From NCBI GenBank assembly GCA_963817245.1, contig CAWFNQ010000001.1, positions 157,231 to 221,230 of the forward strand: 64,000 nt of DNA, given 5' to 3'. Within the stretch, counting starts at the first letter, position 1. Each line of letters begins with the position of its first letter. The notes under the pieces are model-generated. The model did no database searches and had not been told where the DNA came from. It worked only from the letters and a program-made list of their open reading frames with translations. The position numbers were made by a program, and so were the translations under genes. Below, in pieces: positions 1,040 to 48,782 of this stretch. The DNA comes from an uncultured Chloroflexia bacterium (GTDB lineage: Bacteria; Chloroflexota; Limnocylindria; Limnocylindrales; CSP1-4).

Positions 1040-4000
1040 GCCGACTCAGCGCCCTCGCCGTCCGCAAGCGCAGCGTCACGCTGCTGCTGGCCTTCGCCCT
1101 GTTCGTCGCCGGGATCTCGGCCTGGGGCAGCCTCAAGCAGGAACTGCTCCCGGACATCGACTTCCCGGTCATCACGATCATCGCGCCCTTCCCCGGCGCC
1201 GGCGCCAGCGATGTCGCGAACCAGGTGGCCAAGCCGATCGAACAGGCGGTCTCGGGCGTGCCCCGCCTGGTGACGGTCCAGTCCACGTCCGCGAACTCGC
1301 TCGCCCTCGTCGTGGCCCAGTTCGAGTACGGGACGAACGTCAAGGACGCGACGGCGGCGGTCAGCGAGGGCGTGGCCAAGGCCGGGCTGCCGCCGACGGT
1401 CGAGCCGAACGTCTCGGCGCTCAACATCAACGCGTCCCCGGTCATCATCGCCTCCCTCGCGGCCCCCACCCAGGAGGGTCTCGAGCGGACGGCGGAGATC
1501 GCCCGGACCGAGGTCGTGCCGGAGCTGCTCGCGATCGACGGCGTGTCGCGCGCCGACGTGACCGGCGGCCTCGAGAGCCGCCTGATGGTCACGCTGGACC
1601 CGGCCAAGCTCGCCGCGAACGGCATGTCGGCACAGCAGGTCGTCGGCGTCCTGCAGGCGAACAACCTCACGGTCCCCTCCGGCCAGCTCGTCGAGGACGG
1701 CACGAAGATCCCGGTCTCGACCATCGGTTCGCTCACGACCGCCGACGAGGTCGCCGACGCTCGTCGTCGGGTTCGCGCCGGCCGCCCGCCGGCCACCCCC
1801 GCGGCCCCCGGTGCGTCGCCCGCCGCCGGCCGCGCCGCCGACCCCGGTCACCATCGGCGAGCTCGGGACGGTGGCGATCGACCAGGCGGCGACGACCGGC
1901 TATGCCCGCACGAACGGCGTCGCCGTCGCTGACGCTCTCGGTCACCAAGACCTCGGACGCGAACACGGTCCTGGTGGCCGACGCCGTCACGGCCAAGCTC
2001 GACGAGATCGCCGCCCGCCACCCCGACGAGCTCAAGGTCACGATCGTCTCGGACCTGTCGGACTTCATCACGGAGTCGACCGGCGGGCTGCTCCGCGAGG
2101 GCGGCCTCGGCGCCCTGTTCGCGGTCATCACGATCTTCCTGTTCCTGTTCAGCCTGCGCGCGACGATCGTGGCCGCGGTGAGCATCCCGCTCTCGATCCT
2201 GACGGCGCTCGTGATCATGCAGCTCACCGGGATCAGCCTGAACATCATGACCCTCGGTGGCCTGGCGGTCGCCGTCGGCCGGGTCGTCGACGACGCCATC
2301 GTCGTCCTCGAGAACATCTACCGGCACCGTGCGCTCGGTGAGGACCGGATGACCGCGGTCCTCAATGGCCCGCGAGAAGGTGGCCGGGGCGATCACCGCC
2401 AGCACGCTCACGACCGTCGCCGTGTTCCTGCCGCTCGGGTTCGTCGGCGGACTCGTCAGCCAGTTCTTCCTGCCGTTCGCGCTGACGGTGACCTTCGCGC
2501 TGCTCGCGTCGCTGGTCTGTGCCCTGACCGTCGTCCCGGTCCTCGCCTACTTCCTCGTCGACCGGGTCCGCATGCGAGGTGGACGAGGACGGCGAGCCGA
2601 TGAACTCGATCTGGATCCGCATCTACACCCCGACCATCACAGTTCGCGCTCCGCTCCCGGGCGACCAAGTTCGGCGTGCTCGGCGTGGCCGGCGTCCTGT
2701 TCGTCCTGGCGATGTCGCTGGTCTCGTCGCTGCCGACCCAGTTCATCAACGCGGGGTCCGAGAAGATCCTGCAGGTGAGCATCGCGCCGCCGTCGGGGAC
2801 GCCGTCGGACGTCGTCCTGGCCACGGCGATCGAGGCCGAGGCGATCATCGACGCCGATCCGGACGTCGAGCTCATCCAGACGAGCATCCCCGGCGAGGGT
2901 GACACGAGCTTCCAGACGATCATCGCCGCCCAGAGCGGCCGGCCGGCGAACAGCGCCACGTTGACCGTCCGCCTCGACCCCGCGGTCGATCTCGCCGACC
3001 AAGACCACCGACTTCAACGACGCCATGGCGCCGATCAAGGCCGATGGCTACGACGTCCAGGTCTCCGAGGCGGCCGGCTTCACCTCGAACGGCCTGAACA
3101 TCATCGTCAGCGCCGAGGACCCGGCCGTGGTCGCGTCGACCACCGAGACCGTGGTCGACGGCCCTTGCCGACCAGCCCGGCATCACGAACCTCAAGAGCG
3201 ACCTCGTCAAGGCGACGACCGAGGTCCAGGTCACGGTCGACCCGAACAAGGCCATCGGCGTGGGCCTCACCGCCGTCCAGGTCGCCAACGAGGTGCGCAC
3301 CGCGCTCGTGCCGACCACGGCCACCCAGGTCACGATCGAGGACGGCCGGCCGGTCGACCTCATCGTCCAGCTCGATCCGGCCACGGTCGGTTCCGTCGAT
3401 GCGCTCCGCCAGCTGCCGGTGGGCACGGTCGCCAAGGTCCCGCTCGTCCCAGGTCGCGACCGTCGAGCAGGCCGACGTCCAGGGCAGCATCACCCGCATC
3501 GACCAGTCACCGGCCTCGTCGATCACGGCGAAGATCACCAGCGAGGACACCGGCGCCGTCTCGGCCGCCGTGGCCGCCGAGATCGATTCGCTCAAGGCGT
3601 CGGGGCAGATCCCGCCGGCCGCGACCGTCGAGCTCGCCGGGGTCACCCAGCAGCAGAGCGAGGCGTTCGGTGGCCTGTTCGCCTCGATGGGCGTCGCCAT
3701 CCTGCTCGTCTACGTGATGATGGTGCTCGCGTTCAACTCGCTCGTGACGCCGTTCATCATCCTGTTCAGCCTGCCGCTCGCCCTCATCGGCGCGTTCCCG
3801 GCGCTGTACCTGACCGGCCGGCCCATCGGCGTCAGCGCGCTCATCGGGTTCCTGATGCTCATCGGGATCGTGGTGACGAACGCGATCGTCCTTCTCGACC
3901 TCGTCGAGCGGCTGCGCCGCCAGGGCTACTCGACCCACGACGCCCTCGTCGAGGGCGGGCGGACCCGTGTCCGGCCGATCCTCATGACCGCGATCGCGAC

Positions 4001-4223
4001 GATCCTTGCGTTGATCCCGCTCGCCGCGGGCTTCAACCAGGGGAGCATCATCGCGGCCGAGCTCGGCACGGTCGTCATCGGCGGCCTGTTCAGCTCGACG
4101 TTCCTGACGCTGATCGTCGTGCCGGTGGTCTACTCGCTGGTCGACGGGCTCAAGCAGCGGGTGAGCCGGCTCGGCCGGCCATCCCTGCCGGAACCCGGGC
4201 AGGAGGCCGCGACGCCCGGCTGA
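1036..4223 (+). pseudogene. RND superfamily efflux permease (AcrB/MMPL/HAE-like), broken by about 8 frameshifts (pseudogene or assembly indels)
   Basis: Pieces in three frames join into one ~1060-aa RND permease: MSRLSALAVRKRSVTLLLAFALFVAGISAWGSLKQELLPDIDFPVITI...; ...LFSLRATIVAAVSIPLSILTALVIMQLTGISLNIMTLGGLAVAVGRVVDDAIVVLENIYRH...; C-terminal ...LAFNSLVTPFIILFSLPLALIGAFPALYLTGRPIGVSALIGFLMLIGIVVTNAIVLLD.... Frame switches at about 1757, 1920, 2366, 2575, 2640, 3000, 3162, 3450. No membrane-fusion partner gene is adjacent. Confidence 0.85.
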
Positions 4224-15042: not shown

Positions 15043-15111
15043 TTGCGGCCCGGACGGACCGCCCGCGACGCCCCTCGGCGCCGCCACCCCGAAGCGAGGG
15101 ACCTCGATCGC

Positions 15112-16512
<1,401 letters not shown>

Positions 16513-16516
<4 letters not shown>

Positions 16517-17892
16517 CCGGCCCCGCCGCGGGGTCACGGCCGCGCCCGCCGCGCCGGGCGCTCGACGATCTGTCCCTCCCGATCGACCAGTCCACCCTCG
16601 AGACCCTCGCCGCGGCCGGCCCGGATTGGCTCGCCGCGGATCGTCGTGCGGCATTCGAGGCCTGGGCGGCGCTCCCGCCCGAGTCGAACCTGCTCTACAC
16701 GCCGTACATCGACCTTCGCCTGGCCGATCTCGCCGGCGCCCGGATCGTCACCGAGGTGGCGCCTCCGGCCGCGCCGTCCGGGTCGCTGCCCGGGGATGTC
16801 GATGGACTCGTCGAACTGACCGAGGGCGGCCTGACCGCCGCGTCGCTGTCCCCGGCCGCCTCCGCGGCCGGTGTGACGCTCTCGACGGTCGATGACCTCC
16901 TCGCGACCGACCCCGACCTGGCCCGGGCCCTGATCGACGGCGGCGCGACGCTCCCCGTCGGCGACAAGTTCGCCCAGATGACCCGCGCCCTGTGGCGGGT
17001 CGGGGTCGTCGTGGACATCCCCGACGGGGTCCAGCTCCAACGCCCGATCATCGTCCGGTCGGTCGTGGGCGCCCCGGGCCGGGCCCTGTTGACGCGCACC
17101 TTCATCCGCCTCGGGGCCGGTGCGCAGGCCGCCATCGTCGAGGAGCTCGTCGGCTCGTCCGACGCGTCGGGTCCTTCGGGACGGCAGGCCTTCCTTGCCG
17201 GGACGAGCGAGATCACGCTCGGGGCCGGGGCGTCGCTGGCGATGGCCAGCCTCCAGGAACTGCCCGAGACGGTGGTCGCGTTCCTGCATCGGCAGGCGAC
17301 GGTCGGCGAGGGCGCGACGCTCCACTGGGCCCTCGCCCAGCTCGGTGGCCGCCTCGTCCGCAGCCGCGTCGACAATCGGCTGGTCGGGGACCGCAGCTCG
17401 GCCGAACAGGTCGAGATCGTGTTCGGCGGCGATGAGCAGTTCTTCGACCTCACCTCGTATACGACCCACATCGGTCGCGACACGACCGGCAACCTGCTCT
17501 CGAAGGGCGCTCTGCTCGATCGAGCTCGGGCGTACCTGAAGGGCCTGATCGTCATCGAGCGATCGGCCGTCGGGACCGACAGCTTCCTCGGCGAGTTCGG
17601 GATGAACCTCTCGAAGGCCGCGCGGTCGGTCGCGATCCCCAGCCTCGAGATCGACCAGCCCGACTGCCGTCGCGCCGCCCACTCGAGCTCGGTCGGCCCG
17701 ATCGACGAGGCCCAGCTCTTCTACCTCGAGAGCCGCGGCATCCCGCCCGATGACGCCCGCAAGTACGTGGTGCTCGGGTTCCTCGAACCGGTCGTCGCCC
17801 GCGTCCCGCTCGCCGAGGCGCAGGACCGGTTGCGCGCGCTCATCGAGGCGAAGTGGGATGCCGGGACCGAGGCCGCCGGAGCCGCCGCGTAG
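16513..17892 (+). CDS. sufD: Fe-S cluster assembly protein SufD
   Basis: The GTG overlaps the sufB stop (GTGA). The C-terminal half ...TTHIGRDTTGNLLSKGALLDRARAYLKGLIVIERSAVGTDSFLGEFGMNLSKAARSVAIPSLEIDQPDCRRAAHSSSVGPIDEAQLFYLESRGI is SufD-like. Confidence 0.85.
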
Positions 17893-17921
17893 ATGCCACC
17901 AAAACCGGGGCTCCCGCGACC

Positions 17922-18257
17922 ATGAGGCGCATCGACCTCATCGCGGCCGAGGACGTGCCCGAGGGCACGATGCAGATGACCTACGTGGACGGCACCGACC
18001 AGGTCCTGGTCGTCAACACCAACGGTGAGTTCCACGCGCTCCAGGGCGTCTGCTCGCACGAGTACTTCGAGCTCGACCAGGGGTTCCTGACCAACGGCAC
18101 CCTGACCTGCGCCCTCCACCTGTCCCGGTTCGATCTCGAGAGCGGCGAGCCGCTCGACCCACCGGCGGAGGAGCCACTGGCCGTCTACACCGTGGTCGTC
18201 GAGGACGGGCGGGTGATCATCGAAGTGCCCGACGGGCCGCTCGAGATCAGCGAGTAG
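17922..18257 (+). CDS. Rieske (2Fe-2S) ferredoxin-like protein of the suf operon
   Basis: CSHEYFEL...CALHLSRF gives the CxH...CxxH Rieske ligands. It occupies the position after sufD seen in high-GC Gram-positive suf operons. Confidence 0.8.
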   Translation: MRRIDLIAAEDVPEGTMQMTYVDGTDQVLVVNTNGEFHALQGVCSHEYFELDQGFLTNGTLTCALHLSRFDLESGEPLDPPAEEPLAVYTVVVEDGRVIIEVPDGPLEISE

Positions 18258-28993: not shown

Positions 28994-30412
28994 ATGCGCT
29001 ACGCCGAGTCCATCCTCGACCTGGTCGGCCACACCCCGCTCGTCCGGATCACGCGGGTGACCCGCGACCTCGGACCCGCCGACCGCCAGCCACTCCTGCT
29101 CGCCAAGCTCGAGATGCTCAACCCGGGCGGCTCGGTGAAGGACCGCATCGGGCTCCCGATGATCGAGGCCGCCGAGGGGGCCGGCCTGCTCAAGCCGGGC
29201 GGGACGATCATCGAGCCCACGTCCGGGAACACGGGCCACGGTCTCGCGATCGCGGCCGCGCTCAAGGGCTATCGCTGCATCTTCGTCATGGCCGACAAGC
29301 AGTCCTCCGAGAAGCAGCAGCTCCTGCGCGCGTACGGCGCCGAGGTCGTCCTCTGCCCGACGAACGTCCCGCCCGAATCGCCCGAGAGCTATTACTCGGT
29401 CGCGGCCCGCCTGGCCCGCGACATCCCCGGCGCCTTCAAGCCCGACCAGTACTGGAACATGGAGAACCCGGCCGCCCACGAGCGGACGACCGGCCCGGAG
29501 ATCTGGGAGGCGACCGAGGGGCGGGTCACCCACTTCGTGGCGAGCGTGGGGACGGGCGGGACGATCTCCGGCGCGGCCCACTATCTGCACTCGCAGCGGC
29601 CCGACATCGTCGTGGTGGGCGCCGACCCGGAGGGCAGCGTGCTCTCCGGAGACACCGCCCGGCCGTACCTGACCGAGGGGGTGGGCGAGGACTTCCTGCC
29701 CGGCACGTACGACGCCGCCAGCGTCGACCGCTGGGTGCGCGTGAGCGACCGCGACGCGTTCGCGATGGCCCGCCGCCTCACCCGTGAGGAGGGGATCCTG
29801 TCGGGCGGCTCGTGCGGGACCGCCATGGTCGCGGCCCGCGAGATCGTCCGCGAGCTGGCGGCCGCGGACGGCGGGCACGACGCGGTCGTGGTCGTGCTCC
29901 TCCCGGACAGCGGGCGGAGCTACCTCTCGAAGATCTACAACGACGAATGGATGCGCGCGAACGCCCTGATGGCGACGACCGGCGCGGTCGTGCGGGTCGG
30001 CGACCTCCTGCGTGACCGGCACCATGCCGGGCCGATCCCCGACCTCGTGCTCGCCCGCACGACGCAGCGAGTCGGCGACGCGATCGCGATCCTCCAGGAG
30101 TATGGGATCAGCCAGCTCCCGGTCTCCGAGCAGCCCGAGGGCGATGCCGTGACGGGCATCGTGGGCTCGATCACCGAGAAGGGGCTGCTCGACCGTGCCT
30201 TCCGCGACCCGACCACCGTCGAGCGGACGGTCGGCGAAGTGATGGACCGACCGCTGCCGATCGTCGACATCGGCGCCAGCCTCGATGAGGCGTTCGCGCT
30301 CCTGTCCGGTGACGCGTCCGCGGTGATCGCCACGAGCGACGGGCGCCCCGTCGGGGTCGTCACGAAGCTCGACCTCCTCGAGTACCTCGCCCACCGCCGG
30401 CCGGGTGCCTGA
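28994..30412 (+). CDS. cbs: Cystathionine beta-synthase (fold-type II PLP domain plus tandem CBS domains)
   Basis: ILDLVGHTPLVRI...LLAKLEMLNPGGSVKDRIGLPMIEAAE..G.LKPGGTIIEPTSGNTGHGLAIAAALKGYRCIFVM. C-terminal CBS pair ...GISQLPV...IVGSITEKGLLD...VIATSDGRPVGVVTKLDLLEYL. Confidence 0.85.
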   Translation: MRYAESILDLVGHTPLVRITRVTRDLGPADRQPLLLAKLEMLNPGGSVKDRIGLPMIEAAEGAGLLKPGGTIIEPTSGNTGHGLAIAAALKGYRCIFVMADKQSSEKQQLLRAYGAEVVLCPTNVPPESPESYYSVAARLARDIPGAFKPDQYWNMENPAAHERTTGPEIWEATEGRVTHFVASVGTGGTISGAAHYLHSQRPDIVVVGADPEGSVLSGDTARPYLTEGVGEDFLPGTYDAASVDRWVRVSDRDAFAMARRLTREEGILSGGSCGTAMVAAREIVRELAAADGGHDAVVVVLLPDSGRSYLSKIYNDEWMRANALMATTGAVVRVGDLLRDRHHAGPIPDLVLARTTQRVGDAIAILQEYGISQLPVSEQPEGDAVTGIVGSITEKGLLDRAFRDPTTVERTVGEVMDRPLPIVDIGASLDEAFALLSGDASAVIATSDGRPVGVVTKLDLLEYLAHRRPGA

Positions 30413-32563: not shown

Positions 32564-33133
32564 ATGATGGCCGGCGTGTCCGAGGTGCCGACCATCCCGA
32601 CCCCCCGGTTCGAGCTCGTCAGCATGTCCGTGCCGTTCATGCAGGCGCTGCTCCAGCGCGACCTCGGGGCCGCGGCCGTCGAGATCGGCGCGGGCGTTCC
32701 GGCGGACCTCCCGGATCGGCTCGACGGGTTCCTCCAATTCCGGATCGCCGATCTGGCACTCGACCCCGAGGCCCAGCCGTGGCTCGGCCGGGCGATCGTG
32801 CTGACCGACGAGGACCCGCCGGCCCGTCGCTGGATCATCGGATCGGTCGGGTTCCACGCCCCGCCCGGGCCCGACGGCCGGGTCGAGGTGGGTTATCACG
32901 TCGAGCCCGAGTACCGCCGACGCGGGGTGGCCACCGAGGCCATCGGCGCCCTGTTCGACTGGGCGGCGCGCGAACACGGCGTCACCCGATTCCGGGCGTC
33001 GATCGCACCCGACAACGCGGCGTCTCTTGCGGTCGTGGCCCATTTCGGGTTCCGGCAGACGGGCGTGCAACTCGACGACGTCGACGGCAAGGAGCTGGTC
33101 TTCGACCTCGACGACTGGACCGCCACGCCCTGA
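32564..33133 (+). CDS. GNAT family N-acetyltransferase
   Basis: PRFELVSMSVPFMQALL...GSVGFHAPPGPDGRVEVGYHVEPEYRRRGVATEAIGALFDWAAREHGVTRFRASIAPDNAASLAVVAHFGF. An alternative GTG start lies at 32531. Confidence 0.7.
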   Translation: MMAGVSEVPTIPTPRFELVSMSVPFMQALLQRDLGAAAVEIGAGVPADLPDRLDGFLQFRIADLALDPEAQPWLGRAIVLTDEDPPARRWIIGSVGFHAPPGPDGRVEVGYHVEPEYRRRGVATEAIGALFDWAAREHGVTRFRASIAPDNAASLAVVAHFGFRQTGVQLDDVDGKELVFDLDDWTATP

Positions 33134-33149
33134 TGACGGCGGTGCCATC

Positions 33150-34322
33150 ATGGCCGCCATGCCCGAGCACCCGACCGACGCCGACCGACCGGCGAGCCTC
33201 GAGACGCTCGCCGTCCACGCCGGCGCCGAGCCCGACGAACTGACCGGCGCGGTCGCGCCGCCGATCTACCAGACGAGCACCTACGCGCAGGACGGCGTCG
33301 GCCGGCCGCGACGCGGCTACGAGTACGCGCGGTCGCAGAACCCGACGCGCGAGCGGCTCGAGCGGGCCGTCGCCGCGCTCGAGGGCGGGACGTACGGGAT
33401 CGCGTTCGCGTCCGGATCGGCGGTGACCGCGGCGCTCGCCGAGCTGGCCGAGCCGGGCGACGAGGTCGTGGCCGGCGACGACCTGTACGGCGGGACGTTC
33501 CGATACCTGGAACGGGTGCGCCGCGGCGCCGGCGTGGACACCCGCTACGCCGACCTCGCGGCCGGTCCCGATGTCCTCTGGGAAGCGCTCTCGGAGCGGA
33601 CGCGTCTCGTCTGGTTCGAGACGCCCTCGAACCCGCACCTGAAGGTCGTCGACATCGCGGCCGTCGTCGATACCGTGCGACGACGGGCGGCCGAGGGAGG
33701 CCGTCGGCCATTGGTCGTGGTCGACAACACGTTCGCCACCCCGGCCCTGCAACGGCCGCTCGCGCTCGGGGCCGACGTCGTCTTCCATTCCGCGACGAAG
33801 TACCTCGCCGGCCACTCCGACACGATCCTGGGCGTGGCGGTGACCTCGGATCAGGCGATCGGGGAGCGGCTGCGCTTCCTGCAGAACGCGATGGGGGCCG
33901 TGCCCGGTCCGCTCGACTGCTTCCTCGTGCTGCGCGGCCTGCGGACCCTGCACCTGCGCATGGAACGCCACGGGTCGAATGCGCAGCGCGTCGCCACGTT
34001 CTTGCGAGGACGCCCGGACGTGGCCGCGGTCGAGTACCCGGGCCTGGGCGGGATGGTCTCGTTCGTGCCGGCCGCCGGTGGCGCGCATGGCCGCGCGCCA
34101 GCCGATCGCGCGGCCGCGTTCGCGGAGGCGACCCACTGGTTCACGCTCGCCGAATCCCTCGGCGGGGTCGAATCCCTCGTCGAGATCCCCGCGGCGATGA
34201 CGCACACCTCGGTCGCCGGATCCGCGCTGGAGGTGGATCCCTCGCTCGTTCGGCTCTCGGTCGGCATCGAGGGCGTCGACGACCTGCTCGCCGACCTCGC
34301 GCAGGCGCTCGACCGCGCCTAG
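33150..34322 (+). CDS. Cys/Met-metabolism PLP enzyme, cystathionine gamma-lyase/gamma-synthase family
   Basis: ETLAVHAG...PPIYQTSTY...YEYARSQNPTRERLERAVAALEGG.YGIAFASGSAV...DNTFATPALQRPLALGADVVFHSATKYLAGHSD...ESLGGVESLVEIPAAMTH. Confidence 0.85.
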   Translation: MAAMPEHPTDADRPASLETLAVHAGAEPDELTGAVAPPIYQTSTYAQDGVGRPRRGYEYARSQNPTRERLERAVAALEGGTYGIAFASGSAVTAALAELAEPGDEVVAGDDLYGGTFRYLERVRRGAGVDTRYADLAAGPDVLWEALSERTRLVWFETPSNPHLKVVDIAAVVDTVRRRAAEGGRRPLVVVDNTFATPALQRPLALGADVVFHSATKYLAGHSDTILGVAVTSDQAIGERLRFLQNAMGAVPGPLDCFLVLRGLRTLHLRMERHGSNAQRVATFLRGRPDVAAVEYPGLGGMVSFVPAAGGAHGRAPADRAAAFAEATHWFTLAESLGGVESLVEIPAAMTHTSVAGSALEVDPSLVRLSVGIEGVDDLLADLAQALDRA

Positions 34323-35538
34323 GCCAGCCCGAACCGCTCGATCGCGGTCGCGGCGAGCATGCGACCGATCGCCAGGCTCGAGGTGGCCGCCGGTGAGGGG
34401 GCATTGCGGACGTGGAGGAGCCGGCCGCTGCCGCCGAGGCTGAAGTCGTCGACCATCGTCCCGTCGTACCCGACGGCCTGGGCACGCACGCCCGAGGGTC
34501 CGAACCGGACCTGATCCGCCCGCAGGTCGGGCAGGTAGCGCTGCATCTCGTGGACGTAGGCGCGCTTGGAGAGGTCGCGCCACATCTCGGCGGCGCCCAT
34601 CCGCCAGAACCGGGCCGCGAGTCGCTGGAAGCCGCGGTACCTGAGCGTGCCGGCGAGGTCGCGCAGGTCGATGTCCGTGCGCTTGTAGCCCTCGCGCGCG
34701 AGCGCGAGGACGGCGTTCGGGCCGGCCCACACCGCACCGTCGTGGCGCGGCGTGAAATGCACGCCGAGGAATGGGAATCGAGGGTCGGGGACCGGGTAGA
34801 GGAGCCGGGTGACGAGCGAGCGGGCGTCGGGCGAGAGCGTGTAGTAGTCGCCGCGGAACGGGACGATCCGCGGGACCTCGCGACCGACATCCCCGGTCAT
34901 CGCCGCCACGCGGTCGGCGTGGAGCCCGGCGCAGGCGATGACGTCGCGCGCCAGCGAGGTCGCCGGCGCTCGTGGTCAGGACGATCCCGTCGCTCCGCTC
35001 CTGGATCGCGGTGACGTCACGGCTCGTGTGGATGACGGCCCCGGCCGCCCGCAGGTCATCGGCGAAGGCGAGCGCCACGGCGCGGAAATCGACGATCCCC
35101 GTCCGCGGCGACCAGAGGCCGCGCAGGCCCGCCGCCTTCGGCTCGAGCTCGCGGATCCGCTCCGGCCCGACGTCCTCGAGGCCGTCCACGCCGTTCGCGG
35201 TGGCCCGTGCCCGGATGTCGGCCAGGCGGGGGAGCTCGTCCTCGGTCAGCGCGACGACGAGCTTGCCCGGGTAGCGGATGGGGATCCCGTGCGTCTCGGC
35301 ATAGGTCTCGAGCGCCGCCTTGCCCTCCCGGCAGAGCGTCGCCTTGAGCGACCCCGGCGCGTAGTACAGGCCCGCGTGGACGACGCCCGGAGTTGTGCCC
35401 CGATTGGTGGGTGGCGAGCGCCGGCTCCTTCTCGACGATCACGATCCGGAGCCCGGGTCGTGCCTCGAGCAGACGAAGCCCCGTCGCGAGGCCGACGATC
35501 CCGCCGCCGATGATCGCGACGTCCGCTCGCTCGGTCAT
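34319..35538 (-). pseudogene. lhgO: L-2-hydroxyglutarate oxidase-like FAD-dependent oxidoreductase, 2 frameshifts (near 35386 and 34955)
   Basis: MTERADVAIIGGGIVGLATGLRLLE...HQSGHNSG | VVHAGLYYAPGSLKATLCREG... | ...VAAMTGDVGREVPRIVPFRGDYY...LLHVRNAPSPAATSSLAIG. The first switch is at a GGG run. Confidence 0.75.
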
Positions 35539-35641
35539 GCCGTGAACCGTACCGTGCGTCGAGCGGCCTCGTCGTCCACGTCCGGAGGAGTCGGGTCGGG
35601 ACGACGAGGCCGTCGGCGGGATCGGCGGATACCGGTAAGCG

Positions 35642-36682
35642 TTACGAGGATGCGGTCGAGGGCGCCGGCTCCAGTCCGTGTTCGGCAGGGTCGAGTCGAC
35701 CGCGCTCGAGCAAGTCGCGATAGATGGTGACGCTCTCCCCGATCCCGTCGACCAGCGAGGTGGTCGGGAGGGGGCCGAGGACATCGATCCCGTCATGGTC
35801 GATGTCGGAGGGGAATGGCAGGTCCACCGGCTCGAATCCGATCCACCCCGACGCGCCAGGCACGACCGTCTCGATGGCCTCGGCCAGGGCGGCACCATCG
35901 GCCACCACCCCCGGCAGGTTGAACACGTGGGCACCATCGAGGCCACCGCGACTCGCCGCGATCAGGGTGGCCGCGACGTCAGGGGCGTACTGGTACATCG
36001 TCGGGCCGCGGAACGGGACCGTGTACGACCGGCCGAGGACGGCGGCCACGATGGCCTTCGTGGGGCCGCTGGTCATGCCCTGGTCGCGCCCGACCCCGTA
36101 GACGGTCAGGGGCCGGATCCCGACACTGGCGATGCCGTCGTCGAGCCAGTAGACGCGGGCGCTGCCCTCATTGGCCTGCTTGAAGACGCCGTAGTGGTTG
36201 ATCGGGTGGGCGGGCGCGGCCGGGTGCAGTCGGCCGGTGGCCGGGTCGGCGTCCTCGAGTGAGAACATCCCGATCGAGCTCGTATACGCGACCGGCGCCA
36301 TCGGCCGCTCGCGGCCCACTTGCTTGACCGCCTCGAAGACGTTGATGGTGCCGAGCACGTTGACCAGCGCCCCACGGGGCGGGTCGGCGCGACAGAACGG
36401 GACCTGGAGGGCGGCGAGGTGGATGACGTGGTCGATCCCGCGTGTGTCGATCGCGGCGGTCAGCGCGACCGGGTCGGTGATGTCGCCCTCGATCAGTTCG
36501 ACGGTCGCCAGCTCCTCGTCGGTCAGGAGCAGCCGCAGCCGACGCGCATCGCGGCCGAGGTCGAACGCGGTCACGTGGGCCCCCTCGCGAACGAGCGCGC
36601 GGACCGTCCATGCCCCGATGCAGCCCAGGGCGCCGGTCACCAGGAAGTGCTCCGCGCCGGCCGCGCCGCGTCCGCTGGTCAT
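35642..36682 (-). CDS. NAD-dependent epimerase/dehydratase family protein (extended SDR)
   Basis: FLVTGALGCIGAWTVRAL (GxxGxxG) and YGVFKQANE (YxxxK). Its ATG overlaps the FAH stop (ATGA, 36679-36682). Confidence 0.8.
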   Translation of the reverse strand: MTSGRGAAGAEHFLVTGALGCIGAWTVRALVREGAHVTAFDLGRDARRLRLLLTDEELATVELIEGDITDPVALTAAIDTRGIDHVIHLAALQVPFCRADPPRGALVNVLGTINVFEAVKQVGRERPMAPVAYTSSIGMFSLEDADPATGRLHPAAPAHPINHYGVFKQANEGSARVYWLDDGIASVGIRPLTVYGVGRDQGMTSGPTKAIVAAVLGRSYTVPFRGPTMYQYAPDVAATLIAASRGGLDGAHVFNLPGVVADGAALAEAIETVVPGASGWIGFEPVDLPFPSDIDHDGIDVLGPLPTTSLVDGIGESVTIYRDLLERGRLDPAEHGLEPAPSTASS

Positions 36683-45665: not shown

Positions 45666-45985
45666 AGCGCGTCGGGCAGGTGATCCGCGTCCGGCCGGAC
45701 GCGATCGAGGCCTACGAGCGGCTCCACGCCGAGACGTGGCCCGGCGTCCTCGAGGCGATCCATCGCGCGAACATCCGCGACTACAGCATCTACCGGCACG
45801 GGGAGCAGTTGTTCGCCTCGTTCCGCTACGTCGGTGACGACTTCGAGCGCGACATGGCCGCGATGGCGGCCGACCCGACGGTCCGGGCCTGGTGGCAGCT
45901 CACCGACGCGATGCAGGAACCGTACCCGGAGCGGGCGCCCGGGACGTGGTGGCTCGACCTCCGCGAGGTCTTCCACACGGACTGA
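45662..45985 (+). CDS. L-rhamnose/L-fucose mutarotase family protein
   Basis: [77 protein letters not shown]. Its GTG overlaps the fucD stop (GTGA). An alternative GTG lies at 45656. Confidence 0.8.
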
Positions 45986-45990
45986 CGGGG

Positions 45991-46263
45991 TCAGCCGCCC
46001 GCCATGGCCGGCAGCAGCACCAGCGTGTCGGTCTCGCCGACCGGCGTGTCGAGCGCCTGCAGGTGGCGGATGTCGGTGTCGTTGAGGAACGCGTTCACGA
46101 AGCGGTTGAGATCGCCATCGGGGGCGAGGAGCTGCGCCTCGAGCCCGGGGTAGTCGGCGACCAGCTGCGCGACGACCTCGCGGACCGTGCCGCCGGGGAC
46201 CTCGACCTGCTTGGCGCCACCGGTCGCGGTCCGAAGCGTCGGCGGGATGCGGACCGCGCTCAT
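45991..46263 (-). CDS. MoaD/ThiS-family sulfur carrier protein with C-terminal Gly-Gly (CysO-like)
   Basis: MSAVRIPPTLRTATGGAKQVEVPGGTVREVVAQLVADYPGLEAQLL...LNRFVNAFLNDTDIRHL...DTLVLLPAMAGG-stop. The pattern closely resembles mycobacterial CysO as I remember it. Its ATG overlaps the ThrC-like stop (ATGA, 46260-46263). Confidence 0.8.
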   Translation of the reverse strand: MSAVRIPPTLRTATGGAKQVEVPGGTVREVVAQLVADYPGLEAQLLAPDGDLNRFVNAFLNDTDIRHLQALDTPVGETDTLVLLPAMAGG

Positions 46264-47606
46264 GCGACGCCCGTCTCGAGCCAGCGCTCGAACGCGGCGA
46301 GGCTGGGCCGCAGCGGTGGCGCCAGCCCGGGCTCGCCCGGCCGGGCGACGCCGTCGCCGTGGCCGAGGGTCCGCGCATCGGGCGTCTTGAGGCCGTTCCC
46401 GGTCAGGAGTGCGACGACCTCGTCGCCGTCGCGGATGACACCGCGTCGGCGGGCGGCGGCGGCAGCGGCCAGCGTGACCCCACCCGCCGTCTCCGGATAG
46501 ATGCCCTCGAGCCGGGCGACCTCGCGGATGGCCGCGGCCGTCGTCGGGTCGTCGATGGCCTCGACCGAGCCGCCGCTGTCGCGGGCGAGCTCGACCGCGT
46601 AGCGTCCGTCGGCCGGGTTGCCGATGGCCAGCGAGCGGACGATCGTGTCGGGCTCGCGCACCGGTTCGATGACGTCGCTGCCGCGCTCGAACGCGGTGGC
46701 GACCGGGGCGCAGCCGGCGGCCTGGCCGCCGACGAACCGGATCGGGTGCGACGCGATGAGACCGAGCTCGACGAGCTCCTCGAACCCACGGGCGATGCGC
46801 GTGAACATCGCGCCCGAGGCGACCGGAGCGACGATCACGTCCGGCGCACGCCAGCCGAGCGACTCGGCGATCTCGTAGGCCAGCGTCTTGGACCCCTCCG
46901 CGTAGAACGGGCGGAGGTTGATGTTCACGAACCCCCAGCCCGTCTCGTCGGCGACCTCGAGGCAGAGGCGGTTCACGTCGTCGTAGGTGCCCTCGATGGG
47001 CACGACCGTCGCGCCGTAGGCGAGGGCGTGGTCGACCTTGGCCGGCTCGAGGTCGGCCGGGATGAAGACGTAGGCCGGCAGGCCCGCGGCGGCCGCGGCC
47101 GCGGCCGTCGCGCCCGCGAGGTTCCCGGTCGACGCGCAGGCGAGCGCCGAAACGCCGAACTCGACCGCGCGCGCCGCGGCGACGGCGACGGCCCGGTCCT
47201 TGAAGCTCAGCGAGGGGTTGCGGGTGTCGTCCTTGATCCAGAGGCGGTCGAGGCCGAGGGCCGGCGCCAGCCGGTCGGCGGCGACCAGCGGGGTGGACCC
47301 GACCGGCAGCGCGCGGGCGGGGACGGCGTCGACGGGCAGCAGCTCGAGGTACCGCCAGATCCCGGGCCCGCGTCCCGCGATCGCGGACCGGGTCAGGGTC
47401 CGGGCCACGACGGCGAGGTCGTAGGCCACCTCGAGCGGGCCGAAGCACGCTGGACAGACGTACGAGAGCCCGATCGCCGCGCCCAGGCCGCAGTTGCGGC
47501 AGCGCATCCCGAGGATGCGTGCCCCCGCGCTCGCATCGGACGGCGCGGCCGCCTGCGGCGCGTTCGTCGTGCTGGTGGGCTGGCTCGACAGGGTCTCGGT
47601 CGTCAT
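46260..47606 (-). CDS. Threonine synthase family PLP enzyme with N-terminal Zn-ribbon; riboswitch context suggests a homocysteine-forming (MetM-like) role rather than threonine synthesis
   Basis: CRNCG...CPACFGPLEV (CxxC...CxxC). PLP-lysine context NPSLSFKDRAVAVAA. ...ACASTGNLAGATAAAAA..GLPAYVFIP.... GGAG lies upstream of the ATG at 47606. A SAM-I aptamer lies 87 nt upstream. Confidence 0.8.
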   Translation of the reverse strand: MTTETLSSQPTSTTNAPQAAAPSDASAGARILGMRCRNCGLGAAIGLSYVCPACFGPLEVAYDLAVVARTLTRSAIAGRGPGIWRYLELLPVDAVPARALPVGSTPLVAADRLAPALGLDRLWIKDDTRNPSLSFKDRAVAVAAARAVEFGVSALACASTGNLAGATAAAAAAAGLPAYVFIPADLEPAKVDHALAYGATVVPIEGTYDDVNRLCLEVADETGWGFVNINLRPFYAEGSKTLAYEIAESLGWRAPDVIVAPVASGAMFTRIARGFEELVELGLIASHPIRFVGGQAAGCAPVATAFERGSDVIEPVREPDTIVRSLAIGNPADGRYAVELARDSGGSVEAIDDPTTAAAIREVARLEGIYPETAGGVTLAAAAAARRRGVIRDGDEVVALLTGNGLKTPDARTLGHGDGVARPGEPGLAPPLRPSLAAFERWLETGVA

Positions 47607-47692
47607 CGCTCGCTCCGGGTAGGCACAGGGCCTGGGGACCGGGATGACGGGAAGCGACCGCTGGGTCGAGTCAGGGAGGCTCCGAAGGGAGG

Positions 47693-47798
47693 CCCATATC
47701 TCGCAGGAGGTCCTGCCCGGAATTGGCACCTTGCCGACTCGGTCGGTAGGTTGTCGTGGCGTCAACGGGCCGGTCCCTCAGCCAACTCTTGATAAGAG
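47693..47798 (-). promoter_or_regulatory. SAM-I (S-box) riboswitch aptamer
   Basis: The minus strand reads CUCUUAUCAAGAGUUGGCUGAGGGACCGGCCCGUUGACGCCACGACAACC...GGCAAGGUGCCAAUUCCGGGCAGGACCUCCUGCGAGAUAUGGG. The conserved S-box blocks (CUUAUCAAGAG, GAGGGA, GGCCC, CAACC, GGUGCCAAUUCC), a P4 hairpin GCAGG/CCUGC and a P1 closure CUCUUAUC/GAUAUGGG are all present in the right order. Confidence 0.85.
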
Positions 47799-47816
47799 CT
47801 CTTCGGTTGTGCGCGG

Positions 47817-47846
47817 ATGCTACGGGTCGACGGCCCGGAGCGTCAA
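47817..47846 (-). promoter_or_regulatory. Sigma-70-type promoter candidate for the riboswitch transcript
   Basis: TTGACG (47846-47841) - 18 nt - TAGCAT (47822-47817). The -10 hexamer ends 18 nt before the aptamer P1. Confidence 0.55.
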
Positions 47847-47898
47847 GGCAGGGACCCCAGATGCAACGAACCGGGAGGGCGAACCTGCGCGGGGCAAA

Positions 47899-47933
47899 GA
47901 GAGAGCGCCGCGGGTGGTCCGCGACGCTCTCTC
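47899..47933 (-). terminator. Intrinsic terminator candidate after the secreted-protein gene
   Basis: GAGAGAGCG(C)CGCGG - loop - CCGCG(A)CGCTCTCTC. On the minus strand the stem is followed by CUCUUUG. Confidence 0.5.
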
Positions 47934-47950
47934 GGAAGCGAGGGTGGGGA

Positions 47951-48367
47951 TCAGCCCGGGGGGCTGTCGTTCCCGCCGGGAGGCGGGTCGCCGCTCGGCG
48001 GATCCGCCGGCGGAGGACAGAAACGGTTGAACGACTGGACGTGCAGCTGCAGGACGCCGCGGCGCCACGAGGTCCAGACCATGACCCGGGTGCTGGTCCC
48101 ACGGAAGTGGACGCGGAACCCGTGCCATGCCCAGCGCACGCGGGCCTGGCCGCCGGACGCGCTGTCGAAGACGGCACGGCCACGGTCGGTGACGTGGAAG
48201 TCGACGCTGACCGGGGTGCCGGCGCAGGTCACGCCCGTCCAGGTATGGGGACCCGCGACCTCGGGCGGGATGAACCGGGCCGCGGCGACGCTCGCGGGGA
48301 AGGCCACCGCGATCGCGAGCACCGCCAACCCGAGGATGAGCGAGAGCCGTCGTTTGCCTTGGTGCAT
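47951..48367 (-). CDS. Secreted protein of unknown function (138 aa), Pro/Gly-rich C-terminal tail
   Basis: GGAGG lies 5 nt upstream of the ATG. Signal peptide MHQGKRRLSLILGLAVLAIAVAFPASVAAA. No family recognised. Confidence 0.55.
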   Translation of the reverse strand: MHQGKRRLSLILGLAVLAIAVAFPASVAAARFIPPEVAGPHTWTGVTCAGTPVSVDFHVTDRGRAVFDSASGGQARVRWAWHGFRVHFRGTSTRVMVWTSWRRGVLQLHVQSFNRFCPPPADPPSGDPPPGGNDSPPG

Positions 48368-48782
48368 CTCTACCTCCGTGGAACGCCGCGCTCGACGTGG
48401 TGCGGAGCCGATCGTTATGCGCGCGGTCTGCCCGGTGAGCCGGGCGTCGGAGTCCGACCTCGCGTGCCGACGACGCTAGACCCGACCGCGAGCGACGGAG
48501 CGCGCCGGAGGTCCCGATGGACGGGGCTCGATGGTCCCGTTCGTGGCGTGCGCGCACCCATCCGGGGCGCGGACGCACCGAAGGGCTCGAAACGGGCTCC
48601 CGACGACGCCTGTGGCGGCCGTGCACCGCCACCATCCCGCAACCGGGGCGACACCCGTCCGCAACGTGGTAGAGTCGCCGGAACGCGACTGTGGAAGCCG
48701 ACTCCCGCTCGCCTCGGTGAGCGTCACGCGCGGCCGGTCGATCCGTACCGTGATCGCCCGTGCCAAGGAGTCCGACCCTTCG

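Follow-up and report, generated by a model that had tools for sequence, protein, structure and literature searches.

Homocysteine can be made from O-phosphohomoserine with a protein thiocarboxylate as the source of sulfur. In Streptomyces albulus, this conversion is carried out by the enzyme MetM and the sulfur carrier MetO (Hasebe et al. 2024, Applied and Environmental Microbiology, AEM 90:e01247-24, as cited in bioRxiv 10.1101/2024.10.14.618325). GapMind 2026 counts four components in the system: MetO as the sulfur carrier, Mec as a hydrolase, MoeZ as a sulfur ligase and MetM, the homocysteine synthase that depends on MetO thiocarboxylate and is often misannotated as threonine synthase (bioRxiv 10.1101/2024.10.14.618325). 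An S-adenosylmethionine (SAM) riboswitch lies upstream of S. albulus metM; homologues occur in cyanobacteria without the riboswitch, and the one from Microcystis is 51.6% identical to MetM (PMC12172450). Here, we describe a locus of this kind in a stretch of 64,000 nt from an uncultured Chloroflexia bacterium (contig CAWFNQ010000001.1, positions 157,231 to 221,230; hereafter, the window), which belongs to the Limnocylindrales, an order in the class Limnocylindria of the phylum Chloroflexota. As in S. albulus, a gene for a pyridoxal 5′-phosphate (PLP) enzyme homologous to threonine synthase (ThrC) is followed by a gene for a ThiS/MoaD-type carrier, with a SAM riboswitch upstream; the host is a member of the Limnocylindria (Chloroflexota), not an actinomycete.

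We consider it very probable that this locus is a Limnocylindria metM–metO operon, turned off by a SAM-I riboswitch, and that it most likely makes homocysteine from O-phosphohomoserine, a functional reading that is supported by homology and conserved context. An earlier note on this DNA had proposed a protein-thiocarboxylate-dependent homocysteine synthase with SAM as the feedback signal, and had mentioned a MetM/MetO pair reported for Streptomyces. That system indeed exists, as far as it is described in the two sources cited above (bioRxiv 10.1101/2024.10.14.618325; PMC12172450), and the proposal agrees with the published pair, with the placement of the enzyme in a phylogeny and with the conservation of both carrier and riboswitch.

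The metM-like gene specifies a protein of 448 amino acids with a PALP domain (PF00291, 240 bits). It carries an N-terminal four-cysteine ribbon, C36-x2-C39...C51-x2-C54 (nt 47445-47501), and an SFKDR motif starting at residue 134, in which the PLP lysine, Lys136 (nt 47199-47201), aligns with Lys61 of T. thermophilus ThrC. In a PDB sequence search, solved relatives match the catalytic domains only (residues 79-412), and these relatives are all canonical ThrC enzymes of ~350 residues that have no N-terminal ribbon. Among the NCBIfam models, only those for threonine synthase come out on top: the protein scores 252 bits against TIGR00260 (thrC; cutoff 167) and 283.9 bits against its best-matching model, NF006050, which is below the equivalog cutoff of 303. 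Its named homologues in the databases are all called “threonine synthase”.

The evolutionary relations amongst these proteins were inferred from a neighbour-joining tree of 407 trimmed columns. The window protein groups with the proteins of Streptomyces, Kitasatospora and Nonomuraea, to which it is 47-51% identical, and not with canonical ThrC. This clade (clade 1) also takes in sequences from Acidimicrobiia, cyanobacteria, Planctomycetota, Armatimonadota, Bacillota and Dehalococcoidia, and the window protein is as distant from the cyanobacterial ones as the Microcystis homologue is from MetM. With the homologue from S. ipomoeae, a BLASTP comparison gave 47% identity and 362 bits. The four bacterial ThrC structures (group 2), 37-41% identical to the window protein, fall outside clade 1. 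A third group consists of ribbon-bearing proteins of 33-36% identity, from Clostridia, Anaerolineae and a Chlorohelix protein annotated as threonine synthase; we had tried the N-terminal zinc ribbon as a diagnostic for MetM and rejected it, since this group has the ribbon too.

At 16 positions, clade 1 is at least 90% conserved and the four ThrC structures all have one and the same other residue. Examples, numbered as in T. thermophilus, are T88 (Leu163 in the window protein), S155 (Asn230), N157 (Arg232), R160 (Tyr235), N188 (Ser264) and W249 (Gly334). The PLP lysine and 42 other core positions are common to clade 1 and ThrC. Several of the replaced ThrC residues are presumed by us to line the phosphate and substrate pocket.

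As a side observation, the group 3 loci (L118-L127 and L210; Clostridia, Blastocatellia, Anaerolineae and Chlorohelix) come without a riboswitch and without a carrier gene, and they have residues of their own at the signature positions, e.g., Asp and Ala at T. thermophilus positions 188 and 88, respectively. These proteins are presumably threonine synthases.

The stop codon of the metM-like gene overlaps the start codon of the metO-like gene in an ATGA (46263-46260). The 90-aa protein encoded by the latter matches PF02597 (ThiS) with 50 bits and NF041918 with 59.4 bits, and it ends in AMAGG directly before the stop codon, so that the C-terminal Gly-Gly is free. With the carrier of Nonomuraea, it shares 45% identity. 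Most carriers of the related loci considered below end in Gly-Gly, with the C-termini AVAGG (108 carriers), AMAGG (20) and AIAGG (9). In a minority, the end is GGC, as in Kitasatospora and some Streptomyces, or GGAxx, as in several metagenome-assembled genomes (MAGs) of Actinomycetota (L156-L209, L082-L114), which would imply C-terminal trimming by a JAMM/Mec-type peptidase; the carrier in the window needs none.

Amongst solved structures, the carrier is closest to 4n6e_B, which is a ThiS/MoaD-family carrier (68 bits), and to CysO of Mycobacterium tuberculosis (3dwg_C, 64.9 bits). This kinship would fit a pair that performs CysM/CysO-like or other thiocarboxylate chemistry, e.g., the conversion of O-phosphoserine to cysteine or the formation of a thio-amino acid of secondary metabolism. 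We regard such a function as most improbable, because the enzyme belongs to the ThrC family and not to CysK/CysM (the CysM model NF008735 gives only 36.8 bits), the ligand of the riboswitch is SAM rather than a cysteine-related signal, and the pair is not set in a biosynthetic cluster but amongst rhamnose-type sugar genes and those for phosphoenolpyruvate (PEP) carboxykinase and malate dehydrogenase. Moreover, in one relative (L099, see below) the pair is associated with hom, thrB and ask, i.e., with the supply of O-phosphohomoserine, the substrate that we propose for the pair in the window.

SAM-I riboswitches control methionine and SAM genes. In an Rfam scan of the whole window, the leader of the metM-like gene gave the single above-threshold match, to RF00162; its score of 67.2 bits (E = 1.7e-13) exceeds the gathering score of 44.4, and the alignment spans the whole model (1-108). 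When 13 aptamers linked to metM, drawn from several phyla, are compared, both partners change with pairing retained in 12 of the 22 consensus pairs; helix P4 is poorly aligned or shortened in some of the Acidimicrobiia aptamers. By homology and covariation, the element is a bona fide SAM-I aptamer. Upstream of it lies the only sigma-70-like site that a consensus scan finds in region 45700-48600, TTGACG-N18-TAGCAT, where shuffled sequences lead one to expect 0.1 such sites. In most Limnocylindria relatives, the hexamers TTGAC(G/A)-N17/18-TAGCAT are fixed in position while the spacer sequence varies.

The features of the locus are listed in Table 1. The earlier note had read most of this layout from the letters: the promoter, an S-box element at exactly the coordinates of the Rfam match, a threonine-synthase-family gene with a CxxC...CxxC ribbon and an SFKDR lysine, and the overlap with the start codon of a MoaD/ThiS-fold protein ending in AMAGG were all borne out. 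It had also placed a gap of 87 nt between element and gene; the gap is there, but we count 86 nt from the end of the aptamer to the metM-like ATG at 47606.

Table 1. Position of the features of the metM–metO-like locus in the window
Feature	Position	Strand	Basis
sigma-70-type promoter, TTGACG-N18-TAGCAT	47817..47846	-	consensus scan and positional conservation
SAM-I (S-box) aptamer, helices P1-P4	47693..47798	-	RF00162
expression platform, 86 nt	47607..47692	-	fold prediction and leader comparison
CCGGUCCC, candidate anti-Shine-Dalgarno/anti-aptamer segment	47635..47642	-	leader alignment
Shine-Dalgarno sequence GGAG, 6 nt before ATG	47613..47616	-	sequence reading
metM-like gene, 448-aa ThrC-fold PLP enzyme	46260..47606	-	PF00291, TIGR00260, tree
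metO-like gene, 90-aa ThiS/MoaD-fold carrier	45991..46263	-	PF02597, NF041918

In all, we collected 209 related loci (designated by L numbers), including 80 from cultured actinomycetes (Nonomuraea, Streptosporangium, Kitasatospora and many Streptomyces), which were reached via the Nonomuraea gerenzanensis chromosome found by TBLASTN. Rfam identified a SAM-I element immediately before the metM homologue in all of the first 11 loci examined, from Chloroflexota and Actinomycetota, in six more loci (Nonomuraea, a Propionibacteriaceae member, two Planctomycetota, one Bacillota and one Actinomycetota) and in five out of five further loci (three Streptomyces, one Kitasatospora and one Streptosporangium). 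With an nhmmer profile built from these matches, the element was found directly upstream in 131 of the 209 loci. It is present in every actinomycete locus (Streptomyces, Kitasatospora, Nonomuraea, Streptosporangium) and every Limnocylindria-type locus that extends far enough upstream; amongst the 209 loci, the same profile found none in those of cyanobacteria, in agreement with PMC12172450, nor in those of Dehalococcoidia and the group of 35-40% identity. A homologous carrier gene stands directly 3′ of the enzyme gene in most of the loci that reach far enough, and the complete arrangement, SAM-I, metM and metO, is seen in Chloroflexota, Actinomycetota, Planctomycetota, Armatimonadota, Bacillota and Sysuimicrobiota.

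In addition, the Dehalococcoidia MAGs (L088-L098 and L116) harbour homologues of the MetM clade, ~49% identical, with neither SAM-I upstream nor an adjacent carrier gene. In these, the sulfur donor and the regulation must differ, or else the partner genes are located elsewhere.

The gene order in Candidatus Thermofontivivens primus (Sysuimicrobiota; L099, 1091-7562) is informative as to the substrate. A single SAM-I element is followed there by hom, thrC, thrB, ask, the metM homologue and metO, and the canonical ThrC (353 aa) scores 310 bits against TIGR00260. The metM homologue thus stands beside the enzymes that make O-phosphohomoserine and coexists with a normal ThrC; judging from this gene string, the whole O-phosphohomoserine branch, threonine synthase included, appears to lie behind a SAM sensor. 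Nonomuraea gerenzanensis likewise has both, a canonical ThrC at 2.50 Mb (65% identical to the M. tuberculosis enzyme) and the metM homologue at 11.81 Mb. When the window and each of the 209 loci were searched by TBLASTN for hom, thrB, ask and canonical thrC, these genes turned up in L099 only.

The enzyme could, in principle, be read otherwise, namely as a true zinc-ribbon threonine synthase that is controlled by SAM to balance the threonine and methionine branches, with a ThiS-like gene downstream that is unrelated or serves another pathway. Several observations favour this reading and count against the one that we propose. The protein passes TIGR00260, the generic thrC model of NCBI, and hidden Markov model annotation alone would, thus, say threonine synthase; its score with the more specific NF006050, however, is below the cutoff. 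It retains the PLP lysine and many core residues of ThrC, but it also carries the 16 clade-specific substitutions at positions invariant in ThrC, and the tree separates it both from canonical ThrC and from the other ThrC-like proteins with a zinc ribbon. In the tree and the identities, other Streptomyces species stand in for the characterised MetM of S. albulus. A cyanobacterial homologue, a member of the same clade, acted as a threonine synthase/deaminase in vitro and did not raise methionine in vivo (PMC12172450), so that clade membership is no guarantee of MetM activity.

Furthermore, neither a second, separate thrC nor a metX/metY route was found within the 64-kb window, while in Thermofontivivens and Nonomuraea canonical ThrC co-occurs with the homologue. 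Genes for a moeZ/thiF-type E1 or a JAMM hydrolase are likewise lacking from the window, as had been pointed out before: Pfam detects no ThiF/E1 or JAMM domain in its ~55 open reading frames (ORFs), albeit with gene calls based on the G+C content of third codon positions (GC3), by which a short or unusual gene may be missed. A threonine synthase would leave without a partner the carrier that is coupled to it by the ATGA here and found downstream in most of the 209 loci, and it would sit oddly with a class of riboswitch that, as a rule, governs methionine and SAM genes. All told, we deem a threonine synthase very unlikely, and retain MetM as the probable identity of the 448-aa protein.

If the pair works as its homologues do, the pathway would run as follows. 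A MoeZ-type E1-like enzyme, encoded elsewhere, would adenylate the Gly-Gly end of MetO and convert it to the thiocarboxylate, by extrapolation from S. albulus and from CysM/CysO. MetM would bind O-phospho-L-homoserine on the PLP at Lys136 and eliminate phosphate; the thiocarboxylate of MetO would then attack the gamma carbon of the intermediate on MetM to yield homocysteine, for the release of which a hydrolase step may be needed. Homocysteine would be turned into methionine and methionine into SAM. At a high level of SAM, the aptamer would be locked and the expression of both genes would fall, metO following metM by translational coupling. Most likely, repression would come about as the Shine-Dalgarno (SD) sequence and the start-codon region become paired with a downstream segment, CCGG(UCCC); without SAM, this segment may pair with the aptamer strand GGGACCGG instead.

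The expression platform comprises two small hairpins (CUCC-CUUC-GGAG and, as a 5-bp remnant, CGACC/GGUCG), the conserved CCGGUCCC and a further hairpin that sequesters the SD sequence and the start codon; in the leader alignment of the relatives, sequence conservation starts at the ATG. The segment CCGGUCCC is the perfect complement of GGGACCGG (47770-47777) in helix P2 of the aptamer. It is invariant in 13 aligned leaders and, if U or G variants are allowed, present in 22 out of 24 Limnocylindria-type leaders, and RNAalifold pairs it with aptamer columns 22-29 in all 13. The predicted hairpin at ~47649-47601 pairs both the GGAG of the SD sequence and the AUG, with a pairing probability of ~1.0. 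Pairing of the SD sequence with the conserved CCGG(UCC) segment recurs in close relatives, where the flanking bases differ in a complementary manner (e.g., CUCCGG/CCGGAG in L009 and GUUCCCGG/CCGGGAGC in L003). The folding predictions suggest a toggle in which CCGGUCCC would pair with the SD sequence in the presence of SAM and with the aptamer strand GGGACCGG in its absence; to translational control by sequestration of the SD sequence as such, we give about even chances.

The modelling is less kind to this toggle in other respects. In two-state thermodynamic modelling, the SD hairpin forms in every ensemble, whether the aptamer is constrained or free, and the alternative long-range helix of CCGGUCCC with GGGACCGG lies 7 kcal/mol above the minimum free energy; this is why the translational model is put forward conditionally. 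Amongst the aligned leaders, there is no covariation between CCGGUCCC and the aptamer strand, since both sides are invariant, and the one variant aptamer (L019) shows no compensating change.

The leader in the window also differs from those of more distant kin. In the actinomycetes, the gap between aptamer and ATG measures 4-38 nt as against 86 nt in the window, and this longer leader implies an expression platform different from the actinomycete one. In five distant Limnocylindria-type relatives (L015, L016, L022, L025 and L074), a strong hairpin, GACCCUUCC...GGAAGGGUC, and a U-rich tail after it lie ~10-50 nt past the aptamer, whereas the window leader has at the same place only the 5-bp CGACC/GGUCG remnant, with a short stem and a C-rich tail. 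The comparison suggests a turnover of the expression platform inside a single lineage, which may have moved from termination to translational or Rho-dependent control.

The riboswitch might then still act mainly on transcription, in a Rho-dependent manner or via the weak CGACC/GGUCG hairpin, and not on the initiation of translation. The retention of the remnant at the place of the U-tailed hairpins of the distant relatives and the prediction of the SD hairpin whatever the state of the aptamer would both suit such a mechanism; the brevity of the stem and its C-rich tail would not, and neither would the recurrence of the pairing between the SD sequence and the CCGG segment across close relatives. 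A terminator scan detected no intrinsic-terminator-like site in region 45700-48600, in line with the absence of a U-tract terminator asserted in the earlier note, which holds for the window but not for the more distant relatives with their terminator-like hairpin. We consider mainly transcriptional control somewhat unlikely, and SD sequestration is the read-out that we carry forward.

The G+C content of the window is ~71%. Of the genomes that have the metM-like gene, the nearest are MAGs under the label “uncultured Chloroflexia” or “Candidatus Limnocylindrales”, and its closest relative, in contig CAVWIK010000002.1 (L001), is 96% identical. Downstream of the pair are a convergent gene for L-rhamnose mutarotase and one for a mandelate-racemase-type enolase; upstream, a small ORF without Pfam matches is followed by divergent genes for PEP carboxykinase and a malate/lactate dehydrogenase. 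Inspection of these neighbouring genes revealed no biosynthetic cluster around the pair. As the neighbours are unrelated and the pair has a promoter and a leader of its own, it makes a self-contained two-gene operon.

Two other enzymes of sulfur amino acid metabolism occur in the window. One is a cystathionine beta-synthase (PALP plus CBS domain) at 28994-30412 (+), with 534 bits against TIGR01137 (cutoff 510); the other, at 33027-34322 (+), is a Cys_Met_Meta_PP enzyme, the best match of which is PRK07811, “cystathionine gamma-synthase”, with 456 bits, below the cutoff of 513. By their families, they look like a reverse-transsulfuration pair, leading from homocysteine to cysteine, at 13-17 kb from metM–metO.

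Some genes elsewhere in the window appear to be interrupted. The gene for an AcrB/RND transporter is broken into three ORFs in a row (1036-1932, 1902-2603 and 2676-4223, +) that match successive parts of PF00873, and this points to frameshifts, due either to a pseudogene or to assembly errors. A DAO-type flavin adenine dinucleotide (FAD) oxidoreductase is similarly split (34319-34909 and 35056-35946, -). Genes for SufB/SufD-type Fe-S assembly proteins, followed by one for a Rieske protein, are located at 15043-18257 (+); the first SufBD ORF covers only part of the core domain and may be frameshifted.

The identification bears on how the metabolism of these bacteria is reconstructed. Limnocylindria have been described as lacking several amino acid pathways, and methionine is among the reconstructed traits (PMC13212565). 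Since the protein passes the generic thrC model and its named homologues are all “threonine synthases”, automated reconstructions will miss a complete homocysteine route. Recognition of MetM and MetO could change the calls of methionine auxotrophy in Limnocylindria and would serve to correct “threonine synthase” annotations; the understanding of the MetM/MetO pathway itself is unchanged by this locus. A wider proposal, which we think unlikely to hold in all its parts, would make MetM/MetO the only homocysteine route of the Limnocylindria, would have it supply cysteine too, together with the cystathionine beta-synthase and the gamma-lyase/synthase-type enzyme, and would place it under a lineage-specific translational platform in which CCGGUCCC toggles between the P2 strand and the ribosome-binding site. 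If this were true, sulfur would enter both sulfur amino acids through a protein thiocarboxylate alone, and these bacteria, which are abundant in soil and freshwater, would be mistaken for methionine auxotrophs by KEGG-style surveys, in which MetM passes for a “threonine synthase”.

Compared with the Streptomyces homologues, the N-terminal 30 residues of the enzyme in the window are specific to its lineage, and its carrier ends directly in Gly-Gly, unlike the GGC-ending carriers of some Kitasatospora and Streptomyces. The earlier note had held that both the riboswitch control and the taxonomic context would be worth documenting. Riboswitch control had already been reported for S. albulus (PMC12172450); with enzyme, carrier, chemistry and riboswitch control all published, only the host lineage is new.

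With the CysM/CysO/Mec/MoeZ system of M. tuberculosis (PDB 3DWG), the locus would share a fold-type II PLP enzyme for which an O-phospho amino acid is the substrate and a protein thiocarboxylate the sulfur donor, and its carrier is homologous to CysO, as the bit score given above attests. It differs in that the enzyme belongs to the ThrC family, in that the presumed substrate is one carbon longer and the product homocysteine, and in that the pair is under a SAM riboswitch and has neither mec nor moeZ adjacent to it. A protein-thiocarboxylate methionine pathway with the components HcyS, HcyD, HcyF and MetY has reportedly been described in Wolinella succinogenes by Krishnamoorthy and Begley in 2011. 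A ThiS-like thiocarboxylate reportedly delivers the sulfur of homocysteine there too, but to an O-acetylhomoserine sulfhydrylase (fold-type I, Cys_Met_Meta_PP), whereas the window would use a ThrC-fold enzyme on O-phosphohomoserine.

The leaders of the Bacillus met genes have the same RF00162 aptamer, of which the window element matches the full four-helix model. Bacillus S-box leaders act by intrinsic termination; the window leader has no U-tract terminator, and SD sequestration is its more likely read-out. Canonical ThrC (PDB 2ZSJ, 6CGQ, 1UIM and 2D1F), finally, has the same fold, the SFKDR motif and presumably the same substrate, O-phosphohomoserine, the identities cited above being those over the catalytic domains. 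The window enzyme is set apart from these solved structures by its N-terminal four-cysteine ribbon of ~80 residues, and from canonical ThrC at large, which has no carrier partner and no SAM riboswitch, by the possession of both.

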